Both the position numbers and the translations under genes were made by a program. DNA of 64,000 nucleotides. Source: Sulfurimonas sp. (lineage in GTDB: Bacteria; Campylobacterota; Campylobacteria; Campylobacterales; Sulfurimonadaceae). The notes under the pieces are model-generated. The model was not told where the DNA came from. It saw only the letters and a program-made list of their open reading frames with translations, and made no database searches. Below are positions 1,726 to 53,399 of this stretch, in pieces. Within the stretch, counting starts at the first letter, position 1, and the number at the start of each line of letters is the position of its first letter. The stretch covers positions 890 to 64,889 of the forward strand of contig JAOFSE010000011.1 in NCBI GenBank assembly GCA_028044295.1, written 5' to 3'.

Positions 1726-2193
1726 CTATTTTACTTCAAAATTCACTTCATCTAAATCAAAATCTTTTAACTTCTCACTAATCCATTGAGCTACATTAGA
1801 GTCTTCATTAAAGAAGAAGTAAATACTTCCCCCATCCTCATCATTTTTTATAAGTATACTTTCATTGGAATTTGCTTCCCACTCAGCTAAAGATTCATAC
1901 TCTACATACTCTTTTTGCATAACATAGCTCTGTAGTGTTATCTCTTTCTCAAGAGAGTAAAAAAGAAATCTTTTAGAAGAGACATCTTCTACCTTAACAG
2001 GTGTAGGTGAGCTCAAGTGATGAAGTTTGTATCCAAACTCTTCTAACATGTCTAAAAGAAATTCTTTTGACCATGTAAGAACTTGCTTCATACACTTCTT
2101 GGTAGCTGGGTCTGTGTTGTCTCTATCCAAGTATGATGTGTTATAGTCCTTACATATATTACTATAGTCTATTCCAATACCAACTATTTTCAT
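1726..2193 (-). CDS. hypothetical protein, 155 aa
   Basis: ORF starting 1 nt after the MOSC gene stop, probably co-transcribed. Confidence 0.75.
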   Translation of the reverse strand: MKIVGIGIDYSNICKDYNTSYLDRDNTDPATKKCMKQVLTWSKEFLLDMLEEFGYKLHHLSSPTPVKVEDVSSKRFLFYSLEKEITLQSYVMQKEYVEYESLAEWEANSNESILIKNDEDGGSIYFFFNEDSNVAQWISEKLKDFDLDEVNFEVK

Positions 2194-2194
2194 A

Positions 2195-2644
2195 TTAAGC
2201 TTCTTTAATAACTTTCACTTCATTACCAACAGCGACTTCACCGTAAGCAACAGGCTCAATAATAAGTCCACGGTTACCATGAATAAGTTCAGGTAACTCT
2301 GGTGCAATAGCATATAAGTAACGGTACGCTTCACATGGTCCAGTTACTTCAAACTCTGTTTCACCTATTTGAATTATTGAACCAGCTTTTAGATGGTATA
2401 GGTTAACATCAACATAAATGCTTTCCATTAAAAGACCTTCGTCAATAACAAGTTCTGCTTCTTCAATAATATCGTAACTTTTTTTACAAACTAAAACTAT
2501 TGGAGAATCTACACCCTCGTCATAGTCTCTACTTCCAACGATACCATTTGTATCACAATCAAAGTCTTCACACTTCATACGATGTCCAGCACGCACCATA
2601 TCTGGCATAGTAATATATAATGATAATACTTTTCCGTTTGTCAT
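2195..2644 (-). CDS. MOSC-domain protein (YiiM-like)
   Basis: GKVLSLY N-terminus, GSIIQIGETEFEVTGPC (conserved Cys), RGL and GEVAVGNEV patterns. Confidence 0.75.
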   Translation of the reverse strand: MTNGKVLSLYITMPDMVRAGHRMKCEDFDCDTNGIVGSRDYDEGVDSPIVLVCKKSYDIIEEAELVIDEGLLMESIYVDVNLYHLKAGSIIQIGETEFEVTGPCEAYRYLYAIAPELPELIHGNRGLIIEPVAYGEVAVGNEVKVIKEA

Positions 2645-2872
2645 TTTTCATCCTTTATTATAATAATAAAAATTTTTCGTGATATTAGCATAATTTCTCT
2701 GTAGTCTTATCGCTATAATTAAATAATGATAAATTAATAAGCTTCTATAAATATTATTCATTTTTATCCGATATTAACTACATGAAAAAATTAATCAAAA
2801 AAATATTTAGAAAAAAGCAAAAAAATAGCGATGAAATTGAGTACCTAGTGTATAACTTTCATTTTGGACTAG

Positions 2873-3995
2873 TTAAATAGAGTCTACTTCAACTTTATTT
2901 CTACCACCATCTTTAGCTCTATAAAGTGCTTGGTCGGCTCTATTAAGTATTGAGTTTAATGACTCTTCCCCATTTAGTGCAGCAACTCCAAAAGATGCTG
3001 TTCTTTTACCTACATCTAAAAAGTCCTTAGCTCCTATAATATTTTTGATTTTATTCGCAGCTTCTGTTGCTTGTTGAAGATTTAACTTTGGAAGTAGGAT
3101 TAAAAAACTCCTCTCCACCCCATCTTCCAACTGTGTCAGTATCTCTCAATGAGTTACTTAAAATACTAGCAAACTCTTTTAAGAAGTTATCCCCAATATT
3201 GTGCCCATATCTATCATTAATGGTTTTGAAGTTATCTATATCTATTAGTATAATTGAATAGTCTGTTTCATAACGCTTAGCTTGGTTCTGTTCATACTCA
3301 AATAATTTTTCTAAATGATGTCTATTATAGAGATTAGTAAGCTTATCTGTTATAGATAATTCTTCAAATTTATCTTTTTCTTTTTTGAGTTCATCAGTTC
3401 TTTTACTTACTAAATATTCCAAATTTTGATTGAGTTGTTCTAGCTCCTGTGATTGAGTCTCTTTTACATATTCGTATATATTTAACATTGTAAATATAAC
3501 AATCACATATAATGCTGTTGTATATAGATCAAAGTTAGAGTATTTTGTATCTATGGTGTCACTTAATTGCATAAGTGTTATTAAAAGTACTATAAATATA
3601 AGACTGTATAAACCTATTTTCTTACCCTTTAAAAAATAAATACCATGTCCAAGTAAAATAAATACTATTATTCTTGTTGATTGCTCAGTAGCATATATAA
3701 ATGTATACATACTTAAGATAAATGCTATCAATAAAAGTGCTGTTGATATTCTCTCTATGTGTCGTTTGTCTTTTCTAAGCATTACTAATAATCCTATAGC
3801 AACAAATGAGAGTCCTATTTCTATAGAGCCTAAAACACAATGATCATTGTAAAGTCTCATAACTCCTATAACTGATGTAAATATTATTGCTAAAGTAGCT
3901 ATATAGTTTAAATAAATAAATTTATATTTTATGTTTTTTTCATCACTTGTAAATACGTGTCCACTATGTATATAGTTATGTTTTAATTGTTTCAT
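2873..3995 (-). pseudogene. membrane-anchored diguanylate cyclase (GGDEF) split by a +1 frameshift
   Basis: TM helices, then DKLTNLYNR, IDIDNFKTINDRYGH, RDTD I-site and RWGGEEF; the domain continues in another frame (LILLP...ASFGV...RADQALYRAKDGGRN). Removing one base of the A6 run at 3102-3107 fuses the two ORFs. Confidence 0.8.
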
Positions 3996-4052
3996 GGCGG
4001 TATGATACATATTATAAATGGATTAAAAATGGATTTTTTGTTAAAATGTGTC

Positions 4053-50399: not shown

Positions 50400-50555
50400 A
50401 TGAGCACTCCTTTAATTTCATTGTATATTCATGTTATTATACTTCACAAAGTACTAAATAACTATCTATAATTTCAAAACTTTGATTAATCATATATAAT
50501 TTACTGTTCTGCTACCCCTTTATTTTTATATTGGATAACTTTGTTAAAATTCGGT

Positions 50556-51083
50556 ATGAATAAAAAACAATTAGCTATTTTAAGTGTCGGTAATGTATTA
50601 CATAAAGATGAAGGTATTGCTTTATATGCGAGTAAATATCTAGAATCTAATTACAGTTTTCACCCAGGAGTGGATATCATTCATGGTGGTGTTGAAAAAA
50701 TGAGTTTAGTCAATATTTTTATGGAATACCAGGAAGTCATTGTCCTTGATGTCATAGGAATTGAGGATACTCCAGGTTCAATATATCAGTTTCCTATGTC
50801 AACATTTCGTGGTTTTAGTACAGATGAGGACGATAATGAAAAGAGTGTCTTAGGATGTCTAAATTTAATTGAGAAGCAAGGAAACACATTGCCAAAAGTC
50901 AGTCTTTTTGCAATTATTCCAGATACAATAGAACCAAAAGTCGGTTTAAGTGATTCTATTTTAAAACCCTTTGATGCTTATATCTTAATGATTACAAAAG
51001 CGCTTGAAGACAAAGGGTTTAATTGTATAGCTAAAACTGAGAAGCAAACAATCGAAAGCGTCGTAGCAAGTTTTAGTAGTTAA
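50556..51083 (+). CDS. hydrogenase maturation protease family protein (HyaD/HybD-like)
   Basis: ILSVGNVLHKDEG, GVDIIHGG, VIVLD, PGSIY, IIPDTI...GLS. Confidence 0.8.
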   Translation: MNKKQLAILSVGNVLHKDEGIALYASKYLESNYSFHPGVDIIHGGVEKMSLVNIFMEYQEVIVLDVIGIEDTPGSIYQFPMSTFRGFSTDEDDNEKSVLGCLNLIEKQGNTLPKVSLFAIIPDTIEPKVGLSDSILKPFDAYILMITKALEDKGFNCIAKTEKQTIESVVASFSS

Positions 51084-51093
51084 AGGATAGTTG

Positions 51094-51795
51094 ATGCCCG
51101 GACGATTGAGTATGTTCAATGATGCTACTTTTATCCAAGACATTACAAATAAGTTTGGTCCATCAAAAGATACAATTGGTATCTTAAACAAACAGTATAA
51201 TATTCCTCCCACATTAAATATAGCTATCTATACCAATACAAACCTATATACATATGCACACTTTGGACTTATACCATCGTGGGCGAATAAACGTTCTTCT
51301 ATGCAAATTAATGCACGAAGTGAAACAGTATTTGAAAAGAGTAGCTTTAAAGAAGCCTACAAACAAAGGAGATGTCTAATTCCTCTCAATGGATACTTTG
51401 AATGGAAAAAAGATAGCGAAAATAAAAAAAGCATCCCTCATTTTATAACATCTTCCAATCGAGACTATTTTGTCTTTGCAGGCATATATGAATCATGGTA
51501 CGATAATTTACTTGGTGAGACTATACTAACATGTGCTCTACTTACAACAGAACCTAATGCAAAGATAGCAACTTTACATGACCGAATGCCCGTGATACTT
51601 GAATCAGACAAATGGGAGGTATGGCTTAATAACAAAAGTAGCTATAGTGAACTTAACAAATTTTTCACACCCATTCCAAGTGACAAGATAACATACTTTA
51701 GAGTAAGTGACTTGGTAAATAGTGTTAAAAACAATAGTATGGAATGTATAACTAAGAATATAGAGGTAGCACCTAGACAAGGAACACTCTTTTAA
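51094..51795 (+). CDS. SOS response-associated peptidase (SRAP/YedK/HMCES family), Cys2->Pro variant
   Basis: GLIPSW, INARSET, RRCLIP.NGYFEW, HDRMPVIL, V...VNSVKN; begins MPGR. Confidence 0.9.
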   Translation: MPGRLSMFNDATFIQDITNKFGPSKDTIGILNKQYNIPPTLNIAIYTNTNLYTYAHFGLIPSWANKRSSMQINARSETVFEKSSFKEAYKQRRCLIPLNGYFEWKKDSENKKSIPHFITSSNRDYFVFAGIYESWYDNLLGETILTCALLTTEPNAKIATLHDRMPVILESDKWEVWLNNKSSYSELNKFFTPIPSDKITYFRVSDLVNSVKNNSMECITKNIEVAPRQGTLF

Positions 51796-52337: not shown

Positions 52338-53399
52338 CTATTTAGGGTTTCTCAGTATTACAGCAAAATCAAGTTTTGGGTTTTGGTAAGCTTTTTCTAT
52401 ACCATCTATAGAACTCACAATTGTCTCTTCTACTGAATGGTCCTGTGTAATATCTGTTATACCAATTGATATTTTAAGCTGTATTTCACGGTCTGCAAGA
52501 AAAAAATTAGAGTTAGAAACGAGTTCAGATAAACGTTCACTTGCCTTTTTTGCACTATCAATATCTGTATGCTTAAGAAGCATAGCAAAAACACCATCTC
52601 CATAATGAGCTACAGTATCACTACGTCTTGAAGTTTTTAAAAGAAGTCTAGCTATTGTCTTAGTCATAAGCATAATAGCCTTGTCATTTTTCACACTTGC
52701 TTTTAGTTCACGAGATAGCTCTATCATTATTAAAGAACTTTTATGTTTGAACTTTTCTATTAGTCCTATCTCTTGCTCTACTTTAGTGATAAGATTTCTT
52801 TTATTATATACTCCAAACTGATTATCAAAAATTGTCTCATTTTCAACATTTTTAATAATACTAGCAGTTTCATCATACATACCCTTAAGGCTAGTACTCT
52901 GTTTTTTAAGGATAGTATTTAATTTAGCTATGTCACCTTCTAGAGCATCTGCAACATTGCTAGCAGTTAATTCATCATCACTAGCTCTTAGCTCATCTTT
53001 TCTTTTTTCTAGAATTTTTGTCATTAAAGACATATTTTTGTATAAATTAGCAGTTATCCCAAGGATATTTTTGATTGATGAAAATCCATTTTTTAAACTC
53101 TGCTCAAGTCTTATGCTACTTTCATCTTCATTACTCTCTTCAAGTTCCATAATAGAAATTATTTCACTACGAGTATTTTGACTTTTGTCTTCAAGAAGTC
53201 TATCAAAGTATAAAGAAAAATTATTTGGAGTTGGTGGTAGGCCATCTCTTATAAGAGAATTAAGAACCTCTTTTGAGTATGTTTCAAGATCGCCTTCTGG
53301 TTCTGTTGATGATGGTGCACTAGGACTTGATAGCACCTCGTCAGAAGACTGAACATTTTTAATATTGCGACGCGATCTACTCTTTAATGCACCTGCCAT
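52338..53399 (-). CDS. degenerate GGDEF-domain protein
   Basis: helical N-terminus; DNQFGVYNKR, RRSD I-site, HYGDGVF in place of GGDEF, ISIGI. Confidence 0.8.
   Translation of the reverse strand: MAGALKSRSRRNIKNVQSSDEVLSSPSAPSSTEPEGDLETYSKEVLNSLIRDGLPPTPNNFSLYFDRLLEDKSQNTRSEIISIMELEESNEDESSIRLEQSLKNGFSSIKNILGITANLYKNMSLMTKILEKRKDELRASDDELTASNVADALEGDIAKLNTILKKQSTSLKGMYDETASIIKNVENETIFDNQFGVYNKRNLITKVEQEIGLIEKFKHKSSLIMIELSRELKASVKNDKAIMLMTKTIARLLLKTSRRSDTVAHYGDGVFAMLLKHTDIDSAKKASERLSELVSNSNFFLADREIQLKISIGITDITQDHSVEETIVSSIDGIEKAYQNPKLDFAVILRNPK

Follow-up and report, generated by a model that had tools for sequence, protein, structure and literature searches.

Proline in place of the catalytic cysteine in a conserved clade of Campylobacterota SRAP proteins, with recurrence in other bacterial phyla

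The gene at positions 51,094 to 51,795 (forward strand) of the window, that is, the whole stretch of 64,000 nucleotides analysed here (Sulfurimonas sp., contig JAOFSE010000011.1 of assembly GCA_028044295.1), encodes an intact, full-length protein of the SRAP (YedK/HMCES) family, which shields abasic sites in DNA. The protein carries proline instead of cysteine as residue 2. Judging from the homologues, this proline (Pro2) is under purifying selection and is neither an isolated lesion nor a sequencing error. At least three bacterial phyla show the recurrent swap from Cys2 to Pro2, and the alignments indicate that the Pro2 groups have kept the DNA-binding and catalytic apparatus and have remodelled the pocket that holds the thiazolidine ring of the canonical cross-link. 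A chemistry that departs from the canonical one and does not lock the protein to damaged single-stranded DNA is thus probable. The founding paper of the family describes Cys2 as 'absolutely conserved' (PMC3765255), a view that is contradicted by a conserved and recurrent Pro2. New from the window are the Campylobacterota Pro2 clade, its Cys2 sister group, and the placing of the co-varying columns on the thiazolidine pocket known from the literature. Neither natural Pro2 SRAPs nor a C2P mutant turned up in a full-text literature search.

The coding sequence comprises 233 codons and a TAA stop codon (51,793-51,795), with the translation MPGRLSMF...RQGTLF. The Shine-Dalgarno (SD) motif AAGGA (51,083-51,087, forward strand) followed by ATG CCC GGA CGA (M-P-G-R), reported in the initial annotation, was read as stated. 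The motif lies 6 nt ahead of the ATG and overlaps the TAA stop codon (51,081-51,083) of an upstream HycI-like open reading frame (ORF). An in-frame TAG is located two codons 5' of the ATG (51,088-51,090), and the only other candidate start is TTG at 51,091. The ATG at 51,094 is the likely start codon because it is placed 6 nt from the SD motif, as opposed to just 3 nt for the TTG. Homologues have AAGGGG or GAAGGAG at equal spacing. The Pro2 codon CCC (51,097-51,099, forward strand), located at the Cys2 position of the family, is two substitutions away from TGC and three from TGT.

Membership of the SRAP family is supported by both sequence and predicted structure. Pfam gives SRAP only (PF02586, 193.8 bits at a cut-off of 27.1 bits, E = 3.5e-57, profile positions 1-214 of 214), and sequence matches to the solved SRAP proteins 2f20, HMCES and YedK were obtained. 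The AF2 model was built on an alignment with 103 diverse SRAPs (a shallow, clade-only alignment gave a pLDDT of 57 and was not used); it has a pLDDT of 92.1 and a pTM of 0.89 and is confident except for the last ~20 residues. All 21 Foldseek hits with E ≤ 0.001 are SRAP structures (TMq 0.63-0.81), with TM values of 0.81 for 2f20, 0.80 for HMCES, 0.72-0.77 for YedK and 0.77 for the Schiff-base complex of YedK C2A (8d2m). The residues typical of the family, Asn75, Glu105 and His160 together with Arg4, Pro40, Arg77, Trp106, Thr149 and Arg162 (YedK numbering), are all found in the window protein. Residue 2, a cysteine by the definition of the family, is proline here and throughout the clade. Neither a match to the Fpg/Nei domains (PF01149, H2TH, zinc finger) in the protein nor an Fpg/Nei structure among the Foldseek hits of its model was detected, and membership of the Fpg/Nei family was rejected, with neither domain nor fold in common. 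No second SRAP was found in the genome of the window (1.9 Mb, 94% complete).

To score residue 2, the closest homologues were taken as the best 120 among 5.8 billion proteins (64-82% identity). PGRL is found directly behind the start codon in 120 of the 120. About 30 of them are called as 227 aa from an internal Met; in P0040 and ~30 other 227-aa entries the public calls begin at Met7, and the true start is GTG or TTG. Pro2 is thus hidden in the databases for these entries because the true start was missed. In L186 (1483-1500), for example, the true start is a GTG behind a GAAGGAG SD motif, and the skipped codons still read PGRLS. Among species-representative genomes, 27 loci of the clade were found in Sulfurimonas, Sulfurovum, unclassified Campylobacterota and Arcobacteraceae, with identity down to 49-61%; one of these genomes is the complete one of Arcobacter sp. 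15-2. Their N-terminus reads [M/V/L]-P-G-R-L, with the proline encoded by CCT, CCA, CCC or CCG and with ATG, GTG or TTG as start codon. A stop codon is frequently placed directly 5' of the start, which leaves no alternative N-terminus in these cases. In an alignment of 30 sequences of the clade, P2, G3, R4 and L5 are invariant, the mean column identity is 80%, and 83 columns are invariant including the catalytic ones. Since all 30 of the 30 aligned homologues have Pro2, as do the 27 genome loci, in which all four proline codons are used, base-call error and chance are ruled out, in agreement with the argument of the initial annotation that a single base-call error is unlikely to explain CCC. 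The case in which the close homologues would all carry Cys2, also considered there, does not apply: with residue 2 scored in the homologues, Pro2 marks the entire Campylobacterota clade.

Within the bacterial family of the window, SRAP is present in 15 of 151 genomes; six have the Pro2 form (the window's own included), nine the Cys2 form, and none has both. The nearest relatives of the Pro2 clade are these Cys2 SRAPs of the same bacterial family, which are of the MCGRVGFFDD type (one of the nine reads MCAR) and show 35-39% identity. They share the N-terminal block xGRxxxF(D/S)D...F and the C-terminal TLF with the Pro2 clade and, unlike it, have Cys2, a Phe or Tyr in column W103 and an Ile in column I147 (YedK numbering). 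One complete genome of this bacterial family has a Cys2 copy with a single in-frame TGA (L012, genome G010). At the genus level the Pro2 gene is patchy: of two samples of genomes, the first had it in 0 of 29 and the second in 4 of 30. One Pro2 copy, from a metagenome-assembled genome (MAG) of Sulfurimonas, is broken past 40 residues (L043, 4001-4704).

Patchiness in the genus, broken copies in some MAGs (such as L043) and disagreeing start calls (227 aa) could be read as signs of an inactive relic, or of an annotation or sequencing artefact at the N-terminus. This is very improbable and, on the sequence comparison, effectively refuted: the high mean column identity, the number of invariant columns, catalytic ones among them, the synonymous variation at the proline codon and the stop codons that immediately precede the start in many loci all speak against it. 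As for the 227-aa calls, they overlook a GTG start, and PGRL is still encoded behind it.

Pro2 is also found outside Campylobacterota. In Rhodobacterales, a group of proteins of ~200 aa that start with MPGR[F/L/V]FLT was matched in at least 586 species genomes, from genera such as Ruegeria, Shimia, Sulfitobacter, Marivita and Roseobacter. Pro2 is present in 80 of the 80 loci examined (L099-L178), again with four proline codons. Two Shimia genomes encode the Pro2 form alongside a canonical Cys2 paralogue (MCGRF), whereas Roseivivax and two Arcobacteraceae genomes have the Pro2 form as their sole SRAP. The Rhodobacterales group is further marked by a GRxNARGRPV insertion that replaces the conserved Trp67 loop, by HHRMG for HDRMP, and by a new Cys beside Thr149. 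In Anaerolineales (Chloroflexota), 29 of the best 120 hits to P0185 have Pro2 and are interleaved with Cys2 proteins at ~50% identity; it is in this group (P0185, P0377-P0411) that nature contrasts Cys and Pro most cleanly for following the covariation of the pocket. Together with the clade-wide conservation, the recurrence in Rhodobacterales and Anaerolineales lends support to the proposal of the initial annotation that the window protein belongs to a subfamily of SRAPs whose N-terminal nucleophile has been switched. Two candidates were dropped along the way: P0233 as evidence of conservation, being a Pro2 orphan without close relatives, and Leu5 as a universal partner of Pro2, residue 5 often being Phe in Rhodobacterales and Anaerolineales.

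The number of origins was addressed with two phylogenetic reconstructions. In a careful maximum-likelihood tree, from which the N-terminal columns were left out, the Campylobacterota Pro2 clade (support 98/75) is sister to the Cys2 clade of the same bacterial family and nested in groups supported at 100/90 and 99/93. In the same tree P0185 (Anaerolineales type) pairs with a Cys2 protein (95/84), as does P0133 (100/97). In a quick tree, a single clade of all Pro2 rows was rejected by the approximately unbiased (AU) test (p 0.011); the search behind that tree is unreliable, however, because a tree constrained to hold Campylobacterota and Rhodobacterales together scored a better likelihood. The careful tree splits the Campylobacterota and Rhodobacterales Pro2 proteins, and joining them costs 36.7 units of log-likelihood (dlnL; AU p 0.057). 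Independent origins of Pro2 are thus firmly supported for the Anaerolineales-type and P0133 lineages as compared with the Campylobacterota clade, and separate origins of the Rhodobacterales and Campylobacterota groups are favoured, not proven.

Among 328 full-length SRAPs from outside the clade of the window, a sample that is biased in that the queries were Pro2 proteins, 281 have Cys as residue 2 and 45 have Pro, with one case each of Gly and Ala. The single Ala2 protein is a mis-called start. The residues that are one base change away from a TGY codon (Ser, Arg, Tyr, Phe, Trp) are found in none of the 328, and Pro is two changes away. This argues for selection for proline itself, beyond mere loss of cysteine. 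Among the rare other variants at residue 2 are MGARY, with Gly2, in P0236, whose sister is a Cys2 protein, and MAFRLN, seen in MAGs of Granulosicoccaceae (L097, 4001-4657; ~24% identity).

To map the remaining residues, an alignment to YedK was compiled from 19 proteins of the window clade, 8 of its Cys2 sisters, 28 Pro2 and 87 Cys2 proteins of the Anaerolineales type, 20 Rhodobacterales Pro2 proteins and 181 other Cys2 proteins. In YedK, Arg4, Pro40, Asn75, Arg77, Glu105, Trp106, Thr149, His160 and Arg162 have DNA-contact or acid-base roles (PMC6821365, PMC9436759). The corresponding R4, P39, N73, R75, E103, W104, T151, H162 and R164 of the window protein are invariant in all three Pro2 groups; the sole exception is an Ala at the Pro40 column in one of the 28 Anaerolineales Pro2 proteins. 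On the forward strand of the window, Asn73 (YedK Asn75) lies within INARSE at 51,310-51,312, Glu103 (YedK Glu105), the general acid/base for Schiff-base formation, at 51,400-51,402, and His162 (YedK His160), responsible for AP-site (abasic-site) ring opening, at 51,577-51,579 (roles: PMC9436759). The partner Glu and His that the initial annotation had recognised in GYFEW (residues 100-104) and HDRMP (residues 162-166) are therefore both present, and the other DNA-contact residues are kept as well.

The columns that track residue 2 are those of the pocket. In the cross-link structure of YedK, the thiazolidine ring is held by a hydrophobic pocket of Trp103, Ile147 and Pro164, plus Thr149 (PMC6821365). 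The W103 column, represented in the window by Tyr101 (51,394-51,396, forward strand), is Phe in 244 of 276 Cys2 proteins, Tyr in 17 of 19 members of the window clade, Tyr or Val in all 28 Anaerolineales Pro2 proteins and Trp in all 20 of those from Rhodobacterales. At the I147 column, Leu149 in the window (51,538-51,540, forward strand), Cys2 proteins have Ile (255/276), the window clade Leu (17/19), Anaerolineales Pro2 proteins Ile, Phe or Thr, and Rhodobacterales Pro2 proteins Thr (17/20). The third wall, Pro164 in YedK and Pro166 in the window protein (51,589-51,591, forward strand), is Pro in 265 of 276 Cys2 proteins and in the window clade, and Gly in 27 of 28 Anaerolineales and 15 of 20 Rhodobacterales Pro2 proteins.

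Based on these observations, the following mechanism is proposed. The window protein, the only SRAP-fold protein of its genome, would bind AP sites in single-stranded DNA (ssDNA). Its initiator Met would be removed, leaving Pro at the N-terminus. Methionine aminopeptidases normally accept Met-Pro N-termini as substrates, and the genome encodes a 253-aa MetAP-like and a 426-aa PepP-like M24 peptidase, with def adjoining the SRAP locus; removal of the Met is plausible from the sequence. The secondary amine of the proline would be placed like the alpha-amine of Cys2 in YedK and be activated by Glu103. After opening of the AP-site ring by His162 and Glu103, the amine would attack C1', giving a covalent iminium. 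As Pro has no thiol, this adduct could not close into a stable thiazolidine cross-link via residue 2. Two fates are then conceivable. It could undergo beta-elimination with strand cutting, AP-lyase-like as in YedK C2A and Fpg/Nei, an outcome that would be favoured because a secondary-amine iminium is a good electron sink, or it could be hydrolysed, leaving the protein as a short-lived, self-releasing shield, which would be favoured because ssDNA cutting at a replication fork is hazardous. In addition, the C-terminal tail may tether the protein to the beta sliding clamp.

The lyase idea draws on the behaviour of YedK C2A and on the analogy to Fpg/Nei. YedK C2A and C2S form no cross-link and give a borohydride-trappable, Glu105-dependent N-terminal Schiff base, which has been crystallised, and then cut AP-DNA by beta-elimination; in C2A the Schiff base forms with a rate constant of 1.7 and cleavage follows with one of 0.05 (PMC9436759). 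For Fpg, the passage of the same paper that cites Zharkov 1997 names the N-terminal Pro as the Schiff-base nucleophile at C1'. We regard the proposal as a whole, a proline iminium at the AP site that is not locked and ends in cleavage or release, on a protein tethered to the clamp, as evenly poised between right and wrong; Met removal, iminium formation, adduct fate and clamp binding are the parts of it that we infer. A wider generalisation, that Pro2 SRAPs are a natural class of enzymes for AP sites in ssDNA, with multiple origins, a two-step codon change plus pocket remodelling, an Fpg-like proline iminium and, in the window clade, attachment to the clamp, is offered tentatively and is rather doubtful.

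Several observations weigh against the iminium mechanism. In YedK C2A the Schiff base forms ~34 times faster than cleavage proceeds, so the reaction need not end in lyase activity. If ssDNA is cut at a fork, breaks arise, which is what SRAPs are thought to prevent, and a clamp-tethered pure lyase looks risky. The remodelling of the pocket is milder in the clade of the window than in the other two Pro2 groups, with P166 and HDRMP kept. The patchy occurrence within the genus means that the gene is dispensable, and no consistent DNA-repair context or operon was found around the Pro2 SRAP loci compared. Finally, pyrrolidine is near the thiazolidine product in shape and may just fill the pocket and block covalent chemistry.

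The last point leads to the main rival explanation, in which the protein is a non-covalent binder of AP sites or ssDNA: the Pro ring would mimic the closed thiazolidine and fill the pocket, and the protein would shield or mark the lesion and perhaps recruit factors through the clamp. Such a binder would have use for the DNA-contact residues, all of which are kept, and for the conserved clamp-like motif at the C-terminus, and it would avoid the danger of ssDNA cutting. Chemical reasoning on the thiazolidine-like shape of the pyrrolidine ring is in its favour too, and YedK binds AP-ssDNA tightly without reaction (Kd 0.17 µM for an AP analogue; PMC6821365). Binding alone, however, would not require Glu103 and His162, which are invariant in three Pro2 groups; the H160A variant of YedK even binds slightly better than the wild type (PMC6821365), yet the His is kept. 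Moreover, lost chemistry would permit many residues at position 2, and only Pro is seen. That Glu and His are strictly kept and that Pro alone is seen at position 2 thus speaks against a non-covalent binder, which we consider improbable while still to be reckoned with.

Another substrate or another chemistry is conceivable as well, for instance a different aldehydic or electrophilic lesion such as a 3'-PUA end, a formyl-base or an AP site located in a gap or in duplex DNA, or a stable cross-link via a residue other than residue 2. YedK reacts with 3'-PUA ends too (PMC9436759). A candidate for trapping the adduct is the new Cys beside Thr149: the A150 column of YedK is Cys in 20 of 20 Rhodobacterales and 16 of 28 Anaerolineales Pro2 proteins. 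In the window clade, however, Thr and not Cys occupies this column (15/19), and neither the gene context nor an added domain points to another substrate. We rate this explanation as quite unlikely.

The clamp tether of the proposed iminium mechanism is predicted from the C-terminus. The protein ends in Q-G-T-L-F (51,778-51,792, forward strand), located on a tail modelled with low confidence (pLDDT 53-67 for the last 20 residues of the AF2 model). Q229, L232 and F233 are invariant in the 30-sequence alignment, and a Qx[T/S]LF end is found in 120 of 120 clade members. The consensus for binding to the bacterial beta clamp is QL[SD]LF or QxxLF, and the motif docks in a hydrophobic cleft of DnaN. 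Going by this resemblance, the QGTLF tail is probably a clamp tether. An end of the form Qxx[LMI][FLW] is present in 14-28% of sampled Cys2 SRAPs, and many bacterial SRAPs may be tethered to the clamp, by analogy to the tethering of HMCES to PCNA. No paper on SRAP binding to the beta clamp was found in a full-text literature search.

The genomic neighborhood of the gene was compared across loci. Upstream and co-oriented is an ORF for a HycI-like protease (50,541-51,083, forward strand; PF01750, E = 7.5e-13), separated from the SRAP gene by 10 nt and probably co-transcribed with it. This pair is present in 6 of 23 loci compared and in the same-genus genome G165; in L186 the HycI gene lies ~1.3 kb upstream. 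The HycI-like protein, from a family of hydrogenase maturation proteases, is an orphan in the window, with no hydrogenase genes nearby. Downstream, on the opposite strand, are def, a gene for a GGDEF-domain protein and clpP; the GGDEF-domain gene (52,338-53,399, reverse strand; Pfam E = 3.6e-12) is located between clpP and def. In the same-genus Pro2 genomes, def is not adjacent to the SRAP gene. A gene for a RecD2-type helicase is found directly upstream and co-oriented in four Sulfurimonas loci (L025, L027, L028 and L031; ~1750-3990), and the leucyl/phenylalanyl-tRNA-protein transferase gene (aat) directly upstream in six Arcobacteraceae loci (L035-L041; ~3330-4000). The Rhodobacterales Pro2 gene is always placed behind a tesA-like SGNH hydrolase gene and divergent from ybbA/ybbP-like ABC genes. 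With respect to other repair functions, the genome of the window encodes Xth-like and Nfo-like proteins and three HhH-GPD proteins, and no Fpg/Nei gene was found in it. With only Fpg/Nei absent from this set, there is no support for a role of the Pro2 SRAP as a substitute for missing base excision repair.

The Pro2 form offers a natural test of the cross-link as the function of the family, in that it would show what the scaffold does when it is unable to lock DNA. If the proposed mechanism is true, some bacteria process AP sites at forks by cleavage or by a self-releasing covalent shield and not by a long-lived DNA-protein cross-link, which would show how bacteria with only the Pro2 form handle AP sites in ssDNA. 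It would also link SRAP and Fpg/Nei, two unrelated repair families, through convergent chemistry of an N-terminal proline. The prediction is directly testable: Rhodobacterales members are available in the cultured and genetically tractable Ruegeria, Shimia and Sulfitobacter, and some Arcobacter genomes are complete. With regard to annotation, Pro2 proteins currently go under the same names as any YedK, either 'SOS response-associated peptidase' or 'abasic site processing protein', and in some of them a call from an internal Met hides the proline.

Compared with YedK and HMCES, the window protein has the same fold (TM 0.72-0.80), the same length and the same reactive N-terminal position, and the Gly3, Arg4, Asn, Arg, Glu, Trp, Thr, His and Arg residues are identical. 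HMCES has a C-terminal PCNA-binding box where the window protein has the beta-clamp-like QGTLF. The difference lies in residue 2, which is Cys in YedK and HMCES and Pro here, so that the family-defining thiazolidine cross-link is impossible via this residue, and in two of the three pocket walls, which deviate from the Cys2 consensus (Tyr101 for Phe/Trp, Leu149 for Ile). In YedK C2A and C2S (8d2m, model TM 0.77), the N-terminal amine is likewise without a neighbouring thiol, and the Schiff base and AP-lyase activity that these variants show instead of a DNA-protein cross-link (PMC9436759) are the behaviour predicted for the window protein. They are, however, laboratory mutants with a primary amine, whereas the window protein has a naturally selected secondary amine along with changes in the pocket. 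Fpg/Nei proteins expose an N-terminal Pro nucleophile by Met removal, and the window protein likewise begins with Met-Pro and would expose its proline in the same way; their fold and domains are unrelated, and there is no Glu behind the Pro in the window protein. Mycobacterial Nei2 and some other Fpg/Nei members are described as AP lyases on ssDNA in a passage of PMC11323726. By analogy to these systems, the window protein would be a SRAP in fold and family that lacks the defining Cys2 and, if covalent at all, works like Fpg or YedK C2A.

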